A stretch of 64,000 nucleotides of DNA. Origin: a virus (taxonomy: Duplodnaviria > Caudoviricetes). Under the pieces are notes generated by a model that searched no databases, was not told the DNA's origin, and saw only the letters and a list, made by a program, of their open reading frames with translations. The translations under genes were made by a program, and so were the position numbers. How positions within the stretch are numbered: position 1 is the stretch's first letter; the number at the start of each line of letters is the position of its first letter. The stretch lies in the IMG/VR virus record IMGVR_UViG_3300007735_000777, positions 1,912 through 65,911 of that record; one strand, written 5' to 3'. This document shows, piece by piece, positions 35,084 through 57,363 of the stretch.

Positions 35084-35638
35084 TTATCCCCTTTTCGTTT
35101 CTCTGCGTACATACCCACGCTTGGCAAGCTCCTCGGTTACGCTAGTACCACCACGCAGTGCGTTCTTAGCCGCCGCCATGACCTCATCATTGATTATGTT
35201 GTCGTGCGATAACATAAGTGTCTTAGCCAACTTAGCCGTTTCTTTCTTGACCCAGTCGAACGTGCGGTACACACCCTTAGTTAACCGCGCAATATCTGGC
35301 GGATACCCACTTGCAATCTGCCGTATGTATAGCATCGGAACCAAGTCGTCTGCATGAGCGCAGTCAAACCCAAACCATTTGCGCCCATCCATCTTGTCGC
35401 CAAAGGTCAGCCCACCGTGCGCGTACACACCAATTTCATCCGCATCTTGGTAGCTCATGCCATGTAGTTTGTGCCCTATGGGTACTGCAACATACCCACA
35501 CAGACTCAGCGTACTCATGTTGCGTTTGACACGGCAATGGTATCCCGTCTTTTTGTCTACCCACTCCTCAAAGTCAGGCTCGTTCTCCCACGGCCTGTGT
35601 TCTATGAGTAGCTTTGCTTTTTGCATGTCATCTAACAT
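35084..35638 (-). CDS. Conserved phage protein (CGYV..HGGLTF..GFDCAH)
   Basis: Recognisable motif family; start and stop both lie in 12-bp boxes. Confidence 0.8.
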   Translation of the reverse strand: MLDDMQKAKLLIEHRPWENEPDFEEWVDKKTGYHCRVKRNMSTLSLCGYVAVPIGHKLHGMSYQDADEIGVYAHGGLTFGDKMDGRKWFGFDCAHADDLVPMLYIRQIASGYPPDIARLTKGVYRTFDWVKKETAKLAKTLMLSHDNIINDEVMAAAKNALRGGTSVTEELAKRGYVRRETKRG

Positions 35639-44285: not shown

Positions 44286-44451
44286 ATTTTTAGGCGGTGT
44301 GTGGTGTTATAAAAGTTGGTAATGTTATGAGGGGTTTTTGGGTTTGTAACGCAAAAACATAACGCAAAAAAATCAATGGAATCAATAGGTTAGGAAAGAA
44401 AAAATTGAATATGTTATAATGTTATGAGAAAAAAAGTATATATAGCGCCGT

Positions 44452-44472
44452 GAACTTGACATTGTCAAGTTC
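44452..44472. repeat. Palindrome GAACTTGACA-T-TGTCAAGTTC
   Basis: Perfect 10-bp arms; related sites at 25514 and 31401. Confidence 0.85.
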
Positions 44473-44631: not shown

Positions 44632-44758
44632 AGGCTACCCCCGCGCAGGGAACTGGTCTTGTCTAAGGGTTTGTCCCTATGGAAAAAGCCAAAAAAAAAT
44701 GAGACACTGCGTGCAGTGTCTCACTTAATCGCAAGGCTACCCCCGCGCAGAGAACTGG
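44632..44758. repeat. 25-bp direct repeats AGGCTACCCCCGCGCAG(G/A)GAACTGG flanking a hairpin
   Basis: Copies at 44632-44656 and 44734-44758; inverted repeat at 44700-44723. Confidence 0.85.
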
Positions 44759-44782: not shown

Positions 44783-44845
44783 AAAAACCCGTCATAACAA
44801 AAGTTATGACGGGCAGACGCAAAAAAGCCCGCATGAAGCGGGCTT
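44783..44845 (-). terminator. Two tandem intrinsic terminators
   Basis: GCCCGC-N5-GCGGGC + T6, then CCCGTCATAAC-N4-GTTATGACGGG + T5 on the - strand. Confidence 0.75.
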
Positions 44846-52924: not shown

Positions 52925-53530
52925 ATGGCATACCCCACGGTAAGCGCCCCTTACGGGCTGAAGCCAATCAATGCGATTGGTGGTCGTGTGTACGCTGGTG
53001 CAACTCGTCAATACCAAATCGCCTCTGGCGATTCCACTGGCATTTTTTACGGCGATGCCGTGAAATTGACCAATGCAGGTGTAGTGACGAAAGACACCAT
53101 GACTACAGCGGCCTCTGGTTCTACGATTGGTGTTTTCACCGGCTGTTCTTACGTTAACGCGCAAGGTCAGACCATCTACTCGCAGTATTTCCCTGCGTCA
53201 ACCACTGCCCCCACAGGCACAGTCATCACCGCTTACGTGATTGATGATCCCGATGTCTGCTTCAAGGTAGCTTATGTTTCCAGCGGCACAACTGTCGCCT
53301 TTATCGGTCGTACCGTTATCGGCAACAACTTGGCTCTGGTGCAGAACTCTGGCTCTACCACCACTGGCGACAGTGCTGTGGCAGTTTCCAGCGAAGCAAC
53401 CACAAGTACCCTCCCCATCCGTGTTGTTGATGTTGTCCCCGAGACAGCCAACTCATCTGGGAATTTCTGTGAACTGATTGTCAAGTGGAACTTCGCTATT
53501 CACTTCAATCAAATCGCCACTGGCGTTTAA
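52925..53530 (+). CDS. Capsid decoration/cement protein (putative)
   Basis: APYGLKP..IFYGD..IDDP; directly before the MCP. Confidence 0.65.
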   Translation: MAYPTVSAPYGLKPINAIGGRVYAGATRQYQIASGDSTGIFYGDAVKLTNAGVVTKDTMTTAASGSTIGVFTGCSYVNAQGQTIYSQYFPASTTAPTGTVITAYVIDDPDVCFKVAYVSSGTTVAFIGRTVIGNNLALVQNSGSTTTGDSAVAVSSEATTSTLPIRVVDVVPETANSSGNFCELIVKWNFAIHFNQIATGV

Positions 53531-53540
53531 GGAGCAATAA

Positions 53541-54452
53541 ATGGCTATTTCACGCGCACAACTGCTGAAAGAGTTGCTCCCCGGACTGAACGCATTGTTC
53601 GGTATGGAGTACGCACGCTACGGCGAAGAGCACAAGGAAATCTACGAAACCGAGACTTCCGAGCGTTCATTTGAAGAAGAAACCAAGCTGTCTGGTTTCT
53701 CTGCTGCACCGGTCAAAAACGAGGGTTCTGCCATCGCTTATGACAATGCACAGGAAGCATGGACAACCCGCTACAACCACGAAACCATCGCCTTGGGTTT
53801 CTCAATCACTGAAGAAGCGATTGAAGATAACTTGTACGACAGCTTGTCTGCTCGTTACACCAAGTCTCTGGCTCGTGCAATGGCATACACCAAACAGGTC
53901 AAGGCTGCTGCCGTCCTGAACAACGGCTTCTCCGGCACCTACCCCGGTGGTGATGGCGTGTCTTTGTTCAACGCCAACCACCCCCTGATCTCTGGTGGTG
54001 TCAACAGCAACACTCCTTCCACTCAGGTTGACCTGAACGAGACTTCCTTGGAAGCCGCCGTTATTCAGATCGCCGGTTGGACAGACGAGCGTGGCTTGTT
54101 GATCGCAGCAAAGCCTGTGAAGATGATTGTTCCCCCGAACTTGATGTTCGTCGCCAAGCGTCTGTTGGACACCGAACTCCGTGTGTCTACTGCCGATAAC
54201 GACATCAACGCCATCAAGCAAATGGGCGCAATCCCCGGTGGTTACGCTGTCAACCACTTCTTGACAGACACCAATGCTTGGTTCCTGACTACAGACGTGC
54301 CTAACGGTCTGAAGCACTTCGTTCGTTCTCCGCTGGCTAACAGCATGGACGGCGACTTCGACACCGGCAACGTCCGTTACAAGGCCCGTGAGCGTTACAG
54401 CTTCGGCTGGTCTGACCCATTGGGTATGTGGGGTTCTTCAGGTTCGTCCTGA
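53541..54452 (+). CDS. Major capsid protein
   Basis: MAISRAQLLKELLPGLNALFG...KARERYSFGWSDP; biased codons; followed by a terminator. Confidence 0.9.
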   Translation: MAISRAQLLKELLPGLNALFGMEYARYGEEHKEIYETETSERSFEEETKLSGFSAAPVKNEGSAIAYDNAQEAWTTRYNHETIALGFSITEEAIEDNLYDSLSARYTKSLARAMAYTKQVKAAAVLNNGFSGTYPGGDGVSLFNANHPLISGGVNSNTPSTQVDLNETSLEAAVIQIAGWTDERGLLIAAKPVKMIVPPNLMFVAKRLLDTELRVSTADNDINAIKQMGAIPGGYAVNHFLTDTNAWFLTTDVPNGLKHFVRSPLANSMDGDFDTGNVRYKARERYSFGWSDPLGMWGSSGSS

Positions 54453-54485
54453 TAGCTGGACTGGGAGTTTCCCGGTCGTCCACGG

Positions 54486-54510
54486 AAAGGCTCCTTCGGG
54501 AGCCTTTTTA
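54486..54510 (+). terminator. Intrinsic terminator after the MCP
   Basis: AAAGGCTCC-TTCG-GGAGCC-TTTTT. Confidence 0.9.
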
Positions 54511-54514
54511 TTTG

Positions 54515-54543
54515 TTGCATACCATTTTCTTTTGGTGTATATT
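54515..54543 (+). promoter_or_regulatory. Sigma70-like promoter
   Basis: TTGCAT-17 nt-TATATT. Confidence 0.6.
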
Positions 54544-54552
54544 GCACTCATT

Positions 54553-54627
54553 CCGGGGTTCTCCGGTGTATCAAACAGTCCCGGCTGACGACATGCAGAT
54601 TGATACACCCCAACTTGCATGTAAGGA
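54553..54627 (+). ncRNA. Candidate structured leader RNA (interlocked helices)
   Basis: 54553-58 pairs with 54579-84, 54565-74 with 54600-09, 54591-98 with 54615-22; abuts the SD. Confidence 0.55.
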
Positions 54628-54633
54628 AAAAAC

Positions 54634-55173
54634 ATGGCACGCACTACGTTTCAAGGCCCAGTCCGGTCGCTCAATGGTTTTTACACTCAAGGCCCCGGCG
54701 CTGTTCTGGCAATTACTTCATCTACCACTCTCAGCCCTGCTGTTCATGGTGGTCGCATCCTCACAATCGGTGGTTCACTGGCAGCAAACGTCGTTTTGAC
54801 TTTGCCAACGATTAACGCCTCTTCTGACCCTAGCTCATCCGGCCCCGGCTCAGACCCCAATACCCTGAACAACGAAGGCGTTGTGTACACAATTTGGGTT
54901 CCCACAACCATTTCCACAAGCTCGTTGAAGATTGGTACCGACGGTACTGACAAGTATGTTGGCTCTGTTTTGTCAATCGACACCGACTCTTCAAACGTGA
55001 CTGTTGGCTTTGTCCCCGCAGCATCCAACGACTTCATCAACTTGAACGGTGGAACCACCGGCGGTGTTGCTGGTACTTGGGTTCAGATTGTTGCTGTTGC
55101 TGCGTTGAAATACATGGTTACCGGCACTGTGCTGGGTACAGGCGTTGTAGCTACACCGTTTGCAGATTCCTGA
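54634..55173 (+). CDS. Virion structural protein (head fibre/decoration-like)
   Basis: MARTTFQGPVRS...ATPFADS; Thr/Gly/Ser-rich beta protein. Confidence 0.7.
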   Translation: MARTTFQGPVRSLNGFYTQGPGAVLAITSSTTLSPAVHGGRILTIGGSLAANVVLTLPTINASSDPSSSGPGSDPNTLNNEGVVYTIWVPTTISTSSLKIGTDGTDKYVGSVLSIDTDSSNVTVGFVPAASNDFINLNGGTTGGVAGTWVQIVAVAALKYMVTGTVLGTGVVATPFADS

Positions 55174-55186
55174 TTAGGAGCCAAAC

Positions 55187-55477
55187 ATGGCGATGCAATA
55201 TGACGTTAAGTCAACGCATTTGAACGCATCTGGCTCGATCTTCTCGGGCCGGGCGCGTATCAAAGGCTTCTCCATCTGCGCTACGGCGAGTACTGCCGGT
55301 ACGCTTCAGTTGAAAGATGGCGGTTCCGGTGGAACCGTTATGGTTGAAATTGACATCCCATCCAACTCCAACCCCAATTCGTTCTACGTCTTGGTTCCCG
55401 GAGAAGGTGTTTTGTGTTCAACCAGCATCTATGCAACTATGACAAACATCGCCAGTGTGACGGTGTTTTATGGCTAA
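55187..55477 (+). CDS. Small virion structural protein
   Basis: AGGAG SD; ends PGEGVL..VTVFYG. Confidence 0.7.
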   Translation: MAMQYDVKSTHLNASGSIFSGRARIKGFSICATASTAGTLQLKDGGSGGTVMVEIDIPSNSNPNSFYVLVPGEGVLCSTSIYATMTNIASVTVFYG

Positions 55478-55784
55478 GTCACCCGCATGGCAACGGTCGG
55501 AAGGGAAGAACCCAAATGGCGGCTTGAACGCCAAAGGGCGAGCCTCTGCGAAGAAAGAAGGGCACAACCTGAAACCTCCGCAGCCAGAGGGCGGCAGTCG
55601 CCGCGACTCTTTTTGTGCCCGGATGAAGGGCATGAAAGCGAAACTTACGAGCGCCAAGACCGCAAACGATCCAGATTCGAGGATTAACAAGAGCCTTCGA
55701 GTTTGGAACTGTGCTGATGGCGGGTATGTGTCACAAGCAGATGGTTGCGCTACCAAGGGCAAAACAAAAGGCAGGTTTGTGTAA
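55470..55784 (+). CDS. Small basic protein with RADG-type tail
   Basis: SPAWQR.EGKNP.GGLN...SFCARM; ends ADGCATKGKTKGRFV. Confidence 0.75.
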   Translation: MAKSPAWQRSEGKNPNGGLNAKGRASAKKEGHNLKPPQPEGGSRRDSFCARMKGMKAKLTSAKTANDPDSRINKSLRVWNCADGGYVSQADGCATKGKTKGRFV

Positions 55785-55988
55785 ATGGCTGAACACGATC
55801 ACGAAACAATAAAGCACATCCTTGATGGTGCATCTTTAATCACCGTCATAGGAACGCTTGTGGAATTCTTACCTGCCGTCTCCGCGCTGCTCAGTATTAT
55901 CTGGTTGGCAATCCGCATCTACGAAACTGAAACCGTACAAAAGCTTGTGAACCGCAAGAAAGACGACGATGCCAGCAACAAGCCTTAA
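55785..55988 (+). CDS. Small membrane protein (holin-like)
   Basis: Long hydrophobic segment then IRIYETETVQK. Confidence 0.6.
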   Translation: MAEHDHETIKHILDGASLITVIGTLVEFLPAVSALLSIIWLAIRIYETETVQKLVNRKKDDDASNKP

Positions 55989-56439
55989 ACAAAAGAAATT
56001 CATGGATGCTGCGGCGCACAATCCAGCGTTTGCGCAGCAAGCTGGTATCCCACAAAAAGTAGCACAAGATTTCAGCAAGACCAGTAAGGGAATGAAATTT
56101 GGTGCCCCAAGGTCAGTTGTAACCCGCGCAGACCGTCAGACTATCAACAGCCCCAAAACCAATCAAGGTAAAGGGGAACTTTTTAAGAAAGGTGGAAACA
56201 CTATGGCAACGAAAAAAATGATGGCTTTTGAAAAATCCGGTAAAGATGTTGAAATGAAGGGCGTGAAAGAAGGCTCTAAAGCTGACATGGCTATGGACAA
56301 AAAACAAATGGCTATGAAAAAAGGCGGCGGTGTTAAAAAGATGGCTTCTGGCGGCTCAGCTTCTGCCCGCGCTGATGGTGTTGCTCAACGCGGCAAAACC
56401 AAAGGAAAAATGTTGGCCAAAGGCGGAAAAGCCTGCTAA
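55969..56439 (+). CDS. Lys/Met-rich basic protein with RADG tail
   Basis: KQKKFM.AAAHNP.FA; RADGVAQRGKTKG. Confidence 0.75.
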   Translation: MPATSLKQKKFMDAAAHNPAFAQQAGIPQKVAQDFSKTSKGMKFGAPRSVVTRADRQTINSPKTNQGKGELFKKGGNTMATKKMMAFEKSGKDVEMKGVKEGSKADMAMDKKQMAMKKGGGVKKMASGGSASARADGVAQRGKTKGKMLAKGGKAC

Positions 56440-56448
56440 GGAGTACTC

Positions 56449-56682
56449 ATGATGTACGACGATTTGGAAAAGAACAAAGCGGCCCCTCAAGAGCCTGATG
56501 ACGCATCGGCTGGCCGCAAGTTCAAAAAAGATGAACCCGGTATGCCCGAGCAGCCCGGTCAAGACATTCGTGTTGATGGTAAGCCGGTGAAGCCCGCCAA
56601 GAAGATGGCCGGTGGTGGCTCCGCCTCCAGCCGCGCCGATGGTATCGCTCAACGCGGCAAAACCCGTGGAGTAATGATCTGA
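56449..56682 (+). CDS. Small protein with RADG tail
   Basis: AAGGAG SD; MAGGGSASSRADGIAQRGKTRG. Confidence 0.75.
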   Translation: MMYDDLEKNKAAPQEPDDASAGRKFKKDEPGMPEQPGQDIRVDGKPVKPAKKMAGGGSASSRADGIAQRGKTRGVMI

Positions 56683-56960
56683 TGATGGCTTCTCGCGGCA
56701 TGGGGGCCATCAACCCGTCAAAGATGCCGGGTAAGAAGACGATCACCCGCAAGGATGATCCGAACAAGGTCGCCATGTACGCAGAGGGTGGCAAAGTCAA
56801 TGCCGCTGGTAACTACACCAAGCCTGAACTGCGCAAGCGGATTGTGGCTCAGGTAAAAGCAGCAGCCACCCAAGGCACTGGCGCAGGCCAGTGGTCAGCA
56901 AGGAAAGCGCAGTTGGTGGCCAAGAAGTACAAGGCTGCTGGCGGGGGTTACCGCGATTGA
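56682..56960 (+). CDS. Small basic protein
   Basis: NYTKPELRKR..GQWSARKAQL.AKKYK.AGGGY. Confidence 0.75.
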   Translation: MMASRGMGAINPSKMPGKKTITRKDDPNKVAMYAEGGKVNAAGNYTKPELRKRIVAQVKAAATQGTGAGQWSARKAQLVAKKYKAAGGGYRD

Positions 56961-57190
56961 AAGCGCCGCAGCAATCCCTCAAAGATTGGACGGCCCAGAA
57001 ATGGCGTACCAAGTCTGGCAAGCGGTCGTCTGACACGGGTGAGCGGTATTTGCCAGAGAAGGCAATCAAGGCTTTGAGTTCTGCCGAGTATGCGGCAACG
57101 ACAAGAGCTAAGAGAGCGGGGAAAGCGGTGGGGAAACAGTTTGTAAAGCAACCACCCAAGGTGGCAAAGAAAACAGCGGGGTACAGATAA
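56957..57190 (+). CDS. Small basic protein
   Basis: TTG start coupled to the upstream stop; QSLKDWTAQKWRTKSGK..TGERYLP. Confidence 0.7.
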   Translation: MKAPQQSLKDWTAQKWRTKSGKRSSDTGERYLPEKAIKALSSAEYAATTRAKRAGKAVGKQFVKQPPKVAKKTAGYR

Positions 57191-57363
57191 TGGCTGAGAA
57201 GTGGATTCAGAAGGCGATCAAAAAGCCCGGCGCGTTACGTGCCGAATTGGGCGTGAAGGGCGACAAACCTATTCCCGCCAAAAAGCTGGCCGCAGCCGCC
57301 AAGAAGCCCGGTAAGTTGGGCCAACGTGCGCGTCTGGCCGAAACCCTCAAGAAAATGAAGTGA
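57190..57363 (+). CDS. 57-aa basic protein (below track cut-off)
   Basis: MAEKWIQKAIKKPGALRAELG...RARLAETLKKMK; TAATG coupling. Confidence 0.7.
   Translation: MAEKWIQKAIKKPGALRAELGVKGDKPIPAKKLAAAAKKPGKLGQRARLAETLKKMK

Follow-up and report, generated by a model that had tools for sequence, protein, structure and literature searches.

The question raised by this locus is whether the short region between the major capsid gene of a phage and the gene that follows it encodes a structured RNA, and what such an RNA would do. The original prediction placed three helices (P1, P2 and P3) there, interlocked in the order P1-P2-P1′-P3-P2′-P3′. In the window (the whole stretch of 64,000 nucleotides that was analysed), this placement was borne out. 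The major capsid gene (53541-54452; Pfam Phage_capsid_4, 7.2e-15; phrog_371) is followed by its intrinsic terminator at 54484-54509 on the + strand (11 pairs and a T run in the terminator scan), and the next gene, for a 179-aa putative capsid spike, head fibre or cement protein, occupies 54634-55173 on the + strand. The helix coordinates and pairings were exact on recheck, and the strand order was confirmed in the window sequence. P1 joins CCGGGG (54553-58) to TCCCGG (54579-84) by five Watson-Crick pairs and one G.U pair, P2 consists of 10 perfect pairs, and P3 as first proposed (54591-98 with 54615-22) has seven Watson-Crick pairs and one G.U pair.

The leader RNA is about 73 nt long (54553-54625, + strand) and makes up nearly the entire 5′ UTR of the gene that follows the one for the major capsid protein. 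The original inventory was right in its three helices, but the model was incomplete, lacking two stems that we call Pa and Pb. The revised fold has five helices, namely P2 (9-10 bp), the small hairpins Pa and Pb (stems of 3-4 bp), P1 and P3, and the last two are formed by pairing of the whole 6-nt loops of Pa and Pb with upstream single strands. The 5′ strand of P1 (CCGGGG, 54553-54558, +) has the loop of Pa as its partner. It is followed by the 5′ strand of P2 (GGTGTATCAA, 54565-54574, +), which forms its 10 perfect pairs with 54600-09, and by an unpaired A at 54575 (+), which is A in 76/77 freshwater and 21/21 marine unique sequences. Hairpin Pa (54576-54587, +) has the stem CAG 54576-78 / CTG 54585-87 and the 6-nt loop TCCCGG (54579-84), which is the 3′ strand of P1; this loop is exactly 6 nt in 59/59 unique leaders of the first set. 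The junction ACG (54588-54590, +) reads AC followed by G, T or C (ACG 51, ACT 25, ACC 1 of 77). The 6-bp core of the P3 5′ strand, ACATGC (54591-54596, +), pairs with 54617-22, and the junction AGA (54597-54599, +) separates it from the 3′ strand of P2 (TTGATACACC, 54600-54609, +), whose pairing with 54565-74 is supported by covariation. AGA is found in 68 of the 77 sequences (CGA 7, GGA 1, AGG 1) and in 21/21 marine unique sequences. Finally, hairpin Pb (54614-54625, +) has the stem CTT 54614-16 / AAG 54623-25 and the 6-nt loop GCATGT (54617-22), which is the 3′ strand of P3; its 3′ strand AAG is the first half of the Shine-Dalgarno sequence (SD).

Thus, the leader is a compact, doubly pseudoknotted body held by few invariant junction bases (A54575, A54588-C54589 and A54597-G-A54599), and only about 6-7 unpaired bases of the fold are invariant. 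The AC junction was a requirement of the search descriptor and is weakly independent evidence in the descriptor-selected set, but AC was also present in every first-set leader before any descriptor was used, with G, A and C as invariant columns. The topology, with a 10-bp helix at its centre and two hairpin loops of 6 nt that each pair completely with a strand upstream, appears to be previously undescribed.

A single sequence gives little reason to believe in this fold. The nested minimum free energy is −20.6 kcal/mol with z = 0.01, which is no more than chance, and the corresponding structure lacks P1 and P2; nested folding is uninformative for pseudoknots. The helix stacking sum is about −51 kcal/mol, versus −20.6 for the nested structure. 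In addition, the window holds 34 inverted repeats of at least 10 nt within 45 nt. Interlocked triples (at least 6, at least 10 and at least 6 bp, G.U allowed) occur 4 times on its + strand and 20 times on its − strand, and 1 to 20 times (mean 10.1) in ten order-1 resampled windows. Interlocked helices in one sequence alone are not beyond chance, and the relatives decide.

Relatives were gathered by protein-anchored searches, and the four query proteins had 569, 315, 369 and 277 relatives in IMG/VR (overlapping sets). The compensatory-change check that the original prediction called for was run in these homologues, and changes were found in every helix. We are therefore nearly certain that this is a real, conserved structured RNA. 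The strict descriptor demanded perfect pairing in P1 (5-6 bp), Pa and P3, tolerated one mismatch in P2 and did not include Pb. It gave one + strand match in 175/189 sources and 0 matches in 768,673 shuffled bases; a minus-strand match in two sources (L020/L084) was an artefact of palindromic arms and the terminator T-run. In the descriptor-anchored alignment, from which the per-pair tables of pair types and mutual information were taken, the 100% canonical pairing of P1, Pa and P3 is true by construction; what is independent of the descriptor is the variety of pair types, Pb, and the match rates (175/189, and 0 in shuffles). A first covariance model (R1) found 80/82 sources, once each, and had no other match within the 64-kb window; the motif has one copy in the complete 65,911-bp genome. 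A second model (R2) found 83/85 sources, missing L191 and L195, with one weak extra match in L023 (E 0.57).

In a pair count over 54 distinct sequences, 95.3% of cells were paired versus 83.4 ± 0.5% in shuffles, and 0/500 shuffles were as high. Both sides changed in 22/27 pairs, versus 11.2 in shuffles, and slid controls were 25-46% paired. Furthermore, when 98 unique sequences were scored by APC-corrected mutual information, proposed pairs took all of the first 15 places among 2,211 column pairs, and 21 of the first 25. The structure is strongly supported as an RNA-level one, encoded on the + strand, since G.U pairs outnumber A.C combinations by 96 to 5.

Each helix contributes to this signal. 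P1 occurs as CCGGG/CCCGG, CTGGG/CCCAG, CTAGG/CCTAG, CCCAG/CTGGG and CCGTAT/ATACGG; its positions 2-5 have 2-3 pair types and corrected mutual-information ranks of 4, 7, 10 and 21 of 2,211. P2 shows 2-6 canonical pair types per position (77 unique sequences), and 9/10 of its pairs change on both sides in the pair count (helices 2+3). The Pa stem varies as CAG/CTG, CTG/CAG, CCG/CGG, CAGG/CCTG, CTAG/CTAG, CAAG/CTTG and CTGG/CCAG, is 100% paired in the pair count, and changes on both sides in 2/3 pairs. The 5′ strand of P3 appears as ACATGC, ACATAC, TCATGC, CATACA, GTATAC, ATGCAC, TTGTAG, TAGTAG and TGTTAG, each with its complement, with 3-4 pair types per position. The helix P3 itself stood, but not its proposed length of 8 bp: 6 bp (54591-96 / 54617-22) are conserved, and the pair A54597-U54616 is canonical in 33/77 unique sequences. 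Pb played no part in the selection of sequences, yet its three pairs are canonical in 77/77, 77/77 and 75/77, with 2-4 pair types and the variants CTT/AAG, CTC/GAG, GTG/CAC and GCG/CGC; its pairs 2 and 1 rank 18 and 23 of 2,211 in corrected mutual information. Pb is absent from the HTVC027P-like marine clade.

It should be noted that the alignments differ in quality. The MAFFT alignments (A1 and A2) put the 5′ strand of P1, the Pa variants of 4 bp and the second clade in the wrong columns. The covariance-model alignments (A3 and A5) have a one-column register slip in P1 (CCGGG vs CCGGGG), so the pair count understates P1 (86% paired); in A5, the second clade is also misaligned over its 3′ part. 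Covariation speaks for the individual helices and is silent on the coexistence of all five and on P1 and P3 forming within one molecule.

Two further pairings were considered and rejected. The local hairpin at 54553-66, which the original prediction put forward as a competitor, is present in 53/77 freshwater sequences (shuffled mean 40.6, maximum 53) but in 1/21 marine ones; it is clade-specific, and its role as a switch arm common to the family was rejected. The other, in which the 5′ strand of P1 would pair with the first part of the coding region, was found in 43/77 sequences, versus 42.6 in shuffles.

The leader had also been predicted to begin at the +1 of its own promoter. A sigma70-like promoter is predicted at 54515-54543 on the + strand (−35 TTGCAT 54515-20, 17-nt spacer, −10 TATATT 54538-43), which would put +1 near 54550. 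A strict promoter scan of the window gave no promoter at the leader because TTGCAT matches the −35 box at 3/6 positions, and the claim rests on conservation in relatives. The pattern TTG-N20-TATATT has 2 matches in the window versus 0.24 expected. Across 97 unique leaders, the best promoter match averaged 8.5/12 versus 5.7 at control positions, and 37% reached at least 9 versus 0.6% at controls. The −10 box ends 7-10 nt before P1 in 88/97 of them, implying 0-3 free nt at the 5′ end if transcription starts as predicted; in HTVC023P, TTCACA-17-TATAAT ends 7 nt before P1. Four metatranscriptome runs, from 3 studies, have contigs over the motif regions; being assembled, these give no starts or ends and are weak evidence. 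Contigs from RNA libraries bridge the capsid gene, the promoter region and the motif (X19 record 30, X17 record 24), which means that the libraries contain either read-through transcripts or DNA, and that the mRNA may in some cases begin elsewhere than at P1. One of them (X17 record 24) covers 54562-54659 with 0 differences and is uncut through the motif. Reduced RNA coverage at 54465-54530 and across the downstream gene reflects sequence divergence and was discarded as a finding.

At the other end, P3′ abuts the SD as predicted: P3′ ends at 54622, and the SD AAGGA occupies 54623-27, upstream of the ATG (54634-36) of the 179-aa gene (SD and start codon together 54623-54636, + strand). The SD starts 0-5 nt past the P3 3′ strand in 76/77 unique sequences: the first SD-like 4-mer lies at 0 nt in 51/77, at 3 nt in 11 and at 5 nt in 14, and 1 sequence has none. 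Relative to Pb, it begins inside in 51/77, right after in 11 and 2 nt past in 14. SD masking is uneven, the SD lying 3-5 nt past the P3 3′ strand in 25/77 but being buried in P3 in the HTVC027P-like clade.

The 179-aa protein gave no Pfam or PHROG family. Its AF2 model (pLDDT 72.9) has the capsid spike of Pseudomonas phage Pa223 as its best PDB match (E 2.2e-4, TMq 0.41), and among its BFVD matches, at about 1e-5, are proteins of head fibres and tail fibres. In addition, the positional counterpart in phage DSL-LC04 is annotated as 'cement protein'. The downstream product is thus putatively spike-, fibre- or cement-like, judging from the model. The downstream proteins of relatives are 41-44% identical while the fold persists, and they retain the N-terminal MAxTTFxGPV.

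The fold is widely conserved among phages of a very abundant group that lives in fresh and marine waters. It was found in the Pelagibacter phages HTVC023P and HTVC027P and in phage DSL-LC04. The sole context is upstream of the gene after the capsid gene, once per locus and genome. With a relaxed descriptor, it was not found in Pag-Yong1, CRP-901 and Alcaligenes phage QDWS535, which have a related capsid gene. The cement gene of Roseobacter phage CRP-901 is 72% identical to that of DSL-LC04, yet CRP-901 lacks the motif, which indicates that the motif is dispensable. Among genome contigs, the sole full-length match was a 20.7-kb contig of a Chloroflexota-labelled MAG, which carries the same phage module and was not accepted as an indication of the host.

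The original prediction could assign no family, and this held in the Rfam search. The 4,227 models of Rfam 15 cover, among others, the small ribozymes and pseudoknot riboswitches described so far; when 53500-55500 was searched with them by cmscan at E ≤ 10, nothing fell on 54553-54634. The 106-nt slice at E ≤ 10 gave one match, mir-6644 on the minus strand (13.2 bits, E 2.7), and eight relatives including HTVC023P, HTVC027P and DSL-LC04 gave nothing on the motif at E ≤ 1. Two sub-threshold matches in relatives end before or at the first base of P1.

Several known systems resemble the leader in part. The T4 gene 32 leader is an autoregulatory single H-type pseudoknot followed by an unstructured spacer where gp32 polymerises, and it governs translation of the downstream gene. 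In both cases a phage mRNA begins with a pseudoknot, the 5′ end being predicted from the promoter in the present leader. However, the present leader has five helices, two interlocked pseudoknots and 0-5 nt to the SD, and its downstream product is probably fibre- or spike-like rather than a nucleic-acid binder. In the rep mRNAs of IncI-alpha/IncB plasmids, a translational-activator pseudoknot controlled by antisense RNA lies immediately 5′ of the SD. There, too, a hairpin loop pairs with a strand beside the ribosome binding site and the pseudoknot adjoins the SD, but the loop pairs downstream in a single plasmid pseudoknot, whereas the loops here pair upstream. The alpha-operon (rpsM) leader, an r-protein operator, is a double pseudoknot that is bound by S4 and encloses the start codon. 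Both are multi-helix, doubly pseudoknotted leaders at a ribosome binding site, which in the alpha operon controls initiation; unlike that bacterial operator, the present leader has no Rfam match. The SAM-II, SAM-V and preQ1-II riboswitches are compact pseudoknots in which the 3′-most helix overlaps the SD, and SAM-V is known from Pelagibacter, the host lineage of the marine relatives. The leader differs from them in having no covariance-model match, a single gene context, non-universal SD masking and another strand topology. The pistol ribozyme, frequent in phage and metagenome DNA, has a small hairpin with a loop of about 6 nt wholly in a 5-6 bp pseudoknot. Its size is similar, and the Pa loop (6 nt, 59/59) is likewise wholly paired, as the P1 3′ strand. 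In the leader, however, the partner strand lies upstream of the hairpin, there is a second module (Pb/P3), a 10-bp P2 encloses the first, and the pistol Rfam model gave no match at E ≤ 10. Stabilisers of the ompA type are base-paired structures a few nt from the mRNA 5′ end that lengthen half-life; in the present case the −10 box ends 7-10 nt before P1 in 88/97 leaders, which would leave 0-3 free nt at a 5′ end predicted from the promoter.

The leader fold is so far unnamed, with no Rfam family. Fremin et al. 2023 (PMC10690425) reported 8,495 candidate structured RNAs ('DNAVirus_N') from intergenic regions of IMG/VR. That screen shares its data source and its covariation evidence with the present work and lists candidates within 25 nt upstream of genes; the available text of that paper details only the GP20 and GP32 leaders and describes no fold like the present one. 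According to the same text, the T4 gene 32 leader pseudoknot also lacks an Rfam model (PMC10690425).

Of the readings that the original prediction offered (riboswitch-like control, ribozyme or structural RNA), the data lean towards a cis-acting structural or translational leader. The reading that we consider most likely, tentatively and with not quite half of our confidence, is a passive cis-acting element that caps the 5′ end and organises the ribosome binding site. It draws on the anatomy, i.e. the helices, covariation, strand, positions of the promoter-like box and the SD, one copy per genome, and distribution among phages. Transcription would start 0-3 nt before P1, so that the 5′ end is tucked straight into the fold and the mRNA may be shielded from 5′-end-dependent decay. 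At its 3′ side the fold stops at the SD. Since the SD begins within the weak Pb (or within P3 in some marine relatives), the ribosome would have to open only this last stem to meet a pre-organised, insulated binding site. Acting in cis and without catalysis, the leader may thus give stable, high or tuned translation of an abundant capsid-surface protein. Against a cap, a simple hairpin would be enough for 5′ protection. Furthermore, five helices and invariant junctions kept across 41-44% identical proteins suggest specific recognition or chemistry.

An active role, as a new translational switch coupling the capsid-surface protein to a phage or host signal or, less likely, as a self-cleaving ribozyme, is less probable than the passive reading. 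The switch on its own is possible but doubtful. In it, a trans factor (the gene's own product, another capsid-assembly protein or a small molecule) would stabilise or open the last helix, Pb or P3, and thereby tie the production of cement or spike protein to capsid assembly or to the state of the cell. An SD inside the last pseudoknot helix is the layout of SD-masking pseudoknot riboswitches, and the first SD bases lie within Pb in 51/77 freshwater leaders and within P3 in the HTVC027P-like clade. The junctions A, AC and AGA are invariant over deep divergence, as expected of a binding pocket, and the downstream proteins diverge yet keep MAxTTFxGPV, so that a protein feature travels with the RNA. 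However, the SD is free in 25/77 variants, the invariant unpaired bases number only about 6-7, no riboswitch in Rfam matches, and the downstream protein looks, from its model, like a fibre or spike rather than a nucleic-acid binder. Metabolite riboswitches typically stand before several genes tied to one metabolite, unlike this leader with its one locus, single gene context and one copy per genome. This context, together with the non-conserved alternative hairpin, argues against a metabolite sensor.

A new small self-cleaving ribozyme, processing the capsid/spike transcript and leaving a 5′-OH mRNA or a trimmed leader, is improbable. The compact multi-pseudoknot fold of about 73 nt with a handful of invariant junction bases, the 6-nt loop wholly in a pseudoknot (a hallmark of pistol), and the intergenic phage site between co-directional genes would suit it, and the bridging RNA contigs suggest read-through transcripts that could need processing. 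However, no Rfam ribozyme model matched the 106-nt slice, even at E ≤ 10, no processing is needed where a conserved promoter lies just upstream, and the invariant bases are fewer than in known small ribozymes. The RNA contigs are also uncut through the motif, which counts weakly, as contigs drop rare forms.

Still less credible is a promoter-proximal transcription element, whose nascent fold would act on its own RNA polymerase by put-like antitermination or pausing and allow read-through of the structural operon. In every clade the fold does begin a few nt from the predicted +1, and it precedes a long co-directional series of late genes, with terminator-like sites downstream at 55591-55608. 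But its 3′ end is locked to the SD (0-5 nt), which points to translation and which a polymerase-binding RNA would not need, and no antiterminator RNA known to Rfam resembles it. The last reading, that the arms are complementary by chance or form an inverted-repeat operator at the DNA level, agrees with the unremarkable single-sequence statistics. It is effectively refuted by the compensatory changes in all five helices over 98 unique sequences, by the 96 to 5 asymmetry of G.U to A.C, and by the interlocking of the arms, an arrangement with no sensible role in the binding of a dimeric protein to DNA.

Some late genes of phages are known to be controlled by structured 5′ leaders, few of which have been characterised. 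The present leader adds an unusual, well-defined architecture of five helices and two pseudoknots, which comparison among relatives supports very strongly and for which Rfam has no family. Its function is directly testable, since a cultured host-phage pair with published infection RNA-seq exists (HTVC027P / Pelagibacter HTCC1062, PMC12753301); in the HTVC027P sequence MN698241.1, the region concerned lies around 35,480-35,600. If it is the passive cap and ribosome-binding-site element, it would be a compact natural 5′-UTR insulator or stabiliser, of use in synthetic biology. If it is responsive or catalytic, viruses that are among the most abundant in natural waters would carry an RNA regulator of a new class.

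A five-helix RNA fold lies on the + strand, once per genome, between a promoter-like box and the Shine-Dalgarno (SD) sequence of one gene type. The window spans all but a small part of a phage genome that is complete at 65,911 bp and has direct terminal repeats. Its major capsid gene (53541-54452, + strand; Pfam Phage_capsid_4; phrog_371) shares about 71% DNA identity with that of Planktothrix phage Pag-Yong1 and related records, and more remote kin of the gene occur in phage DSL-LC04, Pelagibacter phages HTVC023P and HTVC027P, and Roseobacter phages CRP-901 and CRP-902. The capsid gene is followed on the same strand by an intrinsic terminator (54484-54509), a promoter-like TTGCAT-17 nt-TATATT (54515-54543), the fold, the SD AAGGA (54623-54627) and the ATG (54634) of an ORF for 179 amino acids. 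We found the three interlocked helices of the original prediction, P1, P2 and P3, exactly where it had placed them. Judged from the window sequence alone, these helices are not convincing. The nested minimum free energy fold of the leader (-20.6 kcal/mol, z = 0.01) lacks P1 and P2, and the window holds 34 inverted repeats of at least 10 nt within 45 nt. In addition, a script for interlocked triples of perfect helices (at least 6, 10 and 6 bp, G.U permitted) counted 4 (+ strand) and 20 (- strand) in the real window, versus 1-20 (mean 10.1) in ten order-1 resampled windows. Thus, the decision rests on relatives.

In IMG/VR, 569 relatives of the 179-aa protein were found, of which the best 80 had their loci fetched; loci L082-L188 were added by querying with two divergent members. 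Parsed from an invariant 'GAC' anchor, all 59 unique leaders of the first set had a common plan. A strict descriptor (a small hairpin Pa of 3-4 bp with a 6-nt loop, 'AC', 6/6 pairs in P3, at most one mismatch in 9-10 pairs of P2, and 5-6 perfect pairs in P1) matched 175 of 189 sources, once each and on the + strand, with the window match at 54553; 768,673 shuffled bases gave no match. One extra match, on the minus strand of locus L020 (676-751), is an artefact built from palindromic P1 arms, a TTAA...TTAA stem and a terminator T-run. The 14 misses included five loci cut on the 5' side (L064, L098, L126, L134 and L155) and variants with a P2 indel or bulge or with longer junctions (L033, L051, L074 and L184, with the duplicate contigs L055, L156, L157 and L161). 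L033, L051, L055, L074 and L184, the five of these variants searched separately, were still recovered by R1 or R2, two covariance models. The last miss, Pag-Yong1 (L081), lacks the motif and has a different downstream gene. Model R1 gave a single match in 80 of 82 sources, with no further match in the 64-kb window.

In the revised structure, P1 (54553-54558 with 54579-54584) has 5-6 bp, P2 (54565-54574 with 54600-54609) 9-10 bp and P3 (54591-54596 with 54617-54622) 6 bp, all on the + strand. Two small hairpins are new relative to the original prediction, Pa (54576-54578 with 54585-54587, 3-4 bp) and Pb (54614-54616 with 54623-54625, 3 bp). The complete 6-nt loop of Pa is the 3' strand of P1, and that of Pb is the 3' strand of P3; Pa is enclosed by P2, and P2 is interleaved with both P1 and P3. 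Between the helices lie J1/2 (54559-54564; 4-7 nt among relatives), an unpaired A (54575), the junctions ACG (54588-54590) and AGA (54597-54599), and a linker (54610-54613; 1-4 nt among relatives). Two extra P3 pairs of the original prediction were not retained. The pair A54597-U54616 is canonical in just 33 of 77 unique freshwater motifs, and 54615, U or C, covaries with its Pb partner and not with P3 (TA 65, CG 11, TG 1 in the same 77). Stacking of the helices contributes about -51 kcal/mol in total, loop penalties not counted. Whether every helix is present at once, and whether P1 and P3 are intramolecular, is beyond what covariation can show.

Compensatory changes across homologues, whole-helix swaps included, bear out the predicted structured RNA. 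In the 77 freshwater motifs, canonical pair types per position numbered 2-6 in P2, 3-4 in P3, 1-4 in Pa, 2-4 in Pb, and 1-3 at five core positions of P1. For instance, P1 occurs as CCGGG/CCCGG, CTGGG/CCCAG, CTAGG/CCTAG, the flipped CCCAG/CTGGG and CCGTAT/ATACGG, and P3 as ACATGC, CATACA, ATGCAC, TTGTAG, TAGTAG or TGTTAG, each with its complement. The percentages paired in P1, P2, Pa and P3 are not independent evidence, because the descriptor demanded their pairing; Pb was outside its demands, yet its pairs are canonical in 77/77, 77/77 and 75/77. The model alignment A3 (54 distinct rows, with a register slip in P1) had 95.3% of cells paired vs 83.4 ± 0.5 after shuffling (0 of 500 shuffles as high) and 22 of 27 pairs changing on both sides vs 11.2 ± 1.4, and covariation scored 0.376 vs 0.155; slid-partner controls gave 25-46% paired and scores of 0.03-0.09. 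Furthermore, in a phylogeny-relative test by APC-corrected mutual information over 2,211 column pairs of 98 unique sequences, ranks 1-15 were all proposed pairs, as were 21 of the top 25. G.U pairs far outnumbered A.C pairs (96 vs 5), which places the RNA on the gene strand, and junction lengths differ by non-multiples of three, so the region is non-coding.

In cultured-phage records, tblastn with the 179-aa protein matched only HTVC023P (44% identity) and HTVC027P (41%), and both carry the motif at the equivalent place. Among 80 marine IMG/VR relatives, 70 passed a relaxed descriptor, another eight carry the motif but with 7 nt in the Pa loop, and two are cut; the motif is present in 78 of 78 usable marine loci. 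The 70 loci hold 21 unique forms, and the eight add two more. The junction A and AGA are invariant across the 21 forms, and AC is followed by G in 20 of them and by A in one. The HTVC027P-like clade has a reduced Pa (CGC/TCG, with C.U adjoining the loop) and no Pb, and its SD is overlapped by the P3 3' strand CTAGGA. In DSL-LC04, the motif lies 5' of a 151-aa gene annotated 'cement protein', whose product has only its first 12 residues in common with the window protein (MATTTFSGPVKA vs MARTTFQGPVRS). CRP-901 lacks the motif by the relaxed descriptor, though the cement proteins of CRP-901 and DSL-LC04 are 72% identical; the motif is likewise missing from Pag-Yong1 and Alcaligenes phage QDWS535. 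By eye, phage 023Pt_psg01 (about 2740-2827) has a diverged motif that keeps P1, P2, Pa and P3, while the two junctions flanking the P3 5' strand are longer, and it was missed by both descriptors and R2. A complete motif (1415-1500) with a capsid-accessory gene 53% identical in protein also occurs in a 20.7-kb contig of a MAG labelled Chloroflexota (L276), which is probably a phage contig or prophage, and the bin label should not be taken as the host.

The original prediction had assigned no family, and Rfam 15 gave no match to the window motif at E ≤ 10 or to eight relatives at E ≤ 1. Look-alikes are the T4 gene 32 leader, plasmid rep activator pseudoknots, SD-masking riboswitches, pistol ribozymes and the S4 operator; the likeness amounts to functional or topological analogy, not membership. 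A full-text literature search found no work joining pelagiphage with pseudoknot, and the titles and abstract openings on double pseudoknots, Shine-Dalgarno sequences and bacteriophage leaders contained none on this element. The leader may well be among the 8,495 anonymous candidate RNAs predicted from IMG/VR intergenic regions (Fremin et al. 2023, PMC10690425), and the portions of that text compared describe no such fold. The fold is a real, well-supported RNA family with unusual topology and no Rfam name.

In 97 unique leaders, the top-scoring sigma70-like sequence within the permitted slot averages 8.5/12, vs 5.7 at 1,771 control positions, and 37% of leaders vs 0.6% of controls score at least 9. 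The RNA had been predicted to start at its own promoter. A promoter-like box does stand at a conserved distance, its -10 element ending 7-10 nt 5' of P1 in 88/97 leaders, but in the window the -35 is weak and a strict promoter scan reports none. The HTVC023P promoter (L190, 1379-1414) is a near-consensus TTCACA-17-TATAAT that ends 7 nt 5' of P1; its -35 box lies within the stem-loop of the capsid-gene terminator, and the two elements overlap on the DNA. In 51/77 motifs, an SD-like 4-mer first occurs directly after the P3 3' strand (0 nt), inside Pb; the distance is 3 nt in 11/77 and 5 nt in 14/77 (none found in 1/77). The ATG is 9-16 nt 3' of P3. Since the promoter-like box and the SD are so near, the leader is essentially the fold alone.

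Bins 54531-54662 were covered in four metatranscriptome runs from three studies, as assembled contigs in which starts, ends and strand are not readable. One contig of 1,336 nt begins in the capsid 3' end, crosses a terminator of its own and continues into the motif and the next gene; another, of 319 nt, is identical to the window over 54562-54659 and reaches past this stretch at both ends. These contigs show presence in RNA libraries and possibly read-through, and DNA carry-over may contribute. In related phages on these contigs, the stretch from capsid stop to promoter (window 54442-54525) is swapped for a different terminator of the GGGGGCC...GCCCCC type, and the motif downstream remains more than 85% alike. 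The terminator-promoter cassette appears to evolve much faster than the leader.

The 179-aa protein has no Pfam or PHROG family. Its AF2 model is all-beta (pLDDT 72.9, pTM 0.73); among solved structures it best matches a Pseudomonas phage Pa223 protein, the capsid spike (E 2.2e-4, TMq 0.41), and among predicted viral ones its matches at around 1e-5 include head-fibre and tail-fibre proteins. These weak matches, together with the annotation of its positional counterpart as 'cement protein', suggest that the product is most likely an abundant capsid-surface protein. An N-terminal MA-x-TTF-x-GP-(V/I) is common to the window protein (54634-54669), the DSL-LC04 protein (L192, 2535-2570), CRP-901 gp56 (L193, 2372-2410) and HTVC023P gp41 (L190, 1501-1524), which are otherwise unalignable. 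This points to a conserved arm that would anchor the proteins to the capsid, with outer domains that can be exchanged. In most lineages the RNA leader comes with this N-terminus; CRP-901 is an exception.

Elsewhere in the window, 55470-57363 is a run of small Lys/Arg/Ala/Gly-rich ORFs. The first (55470-55784) has matches of about 1e-30 to several PHROGs without known function, in many cases to the C-terminal end of far longer proteins, and the neighbours 55969-56439 and 56449-56682 end with a common ...(S)(A/S)RADG(V/I)AQRGKT(K/R)G... motif. Three near-perfect short hairpins within 360 nt (44452-44472, 44697-44726 and 44788-44813) may be terminators or regulatory sites, and an interlocked triple at 44287 is at chance level.

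We infer that the leader fold acts in cis on its mRNA. Our preferred reading, which we hold tentatively and at a little under an even chance, is a passive role of 5'-end protection with an insulated ribosome binding site. The fold would take in the 5' end, 0-3 nt from the transcription start, and stop at the SD. The mRNA would thereby be shielded from 5'-end-dependent decay, and the ribosome binding site offered would need the opening of weak Pb only (about -4 kcal/mol stacking). A responsive switch would fit the invariant junction bases and the SD buried in several clades, but it is doubtful, since the motif has one gene context only, the SD is free in 25/77 variants, and no conserved alternative structure was found; the competing local hairpin of the original prediction is clade-specific. 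A ribozyme is improbable, and a polymerase-directed element slightly more so. The motif is widespread in abundant aquatic phages, and its function is directly testable in a cultured system.
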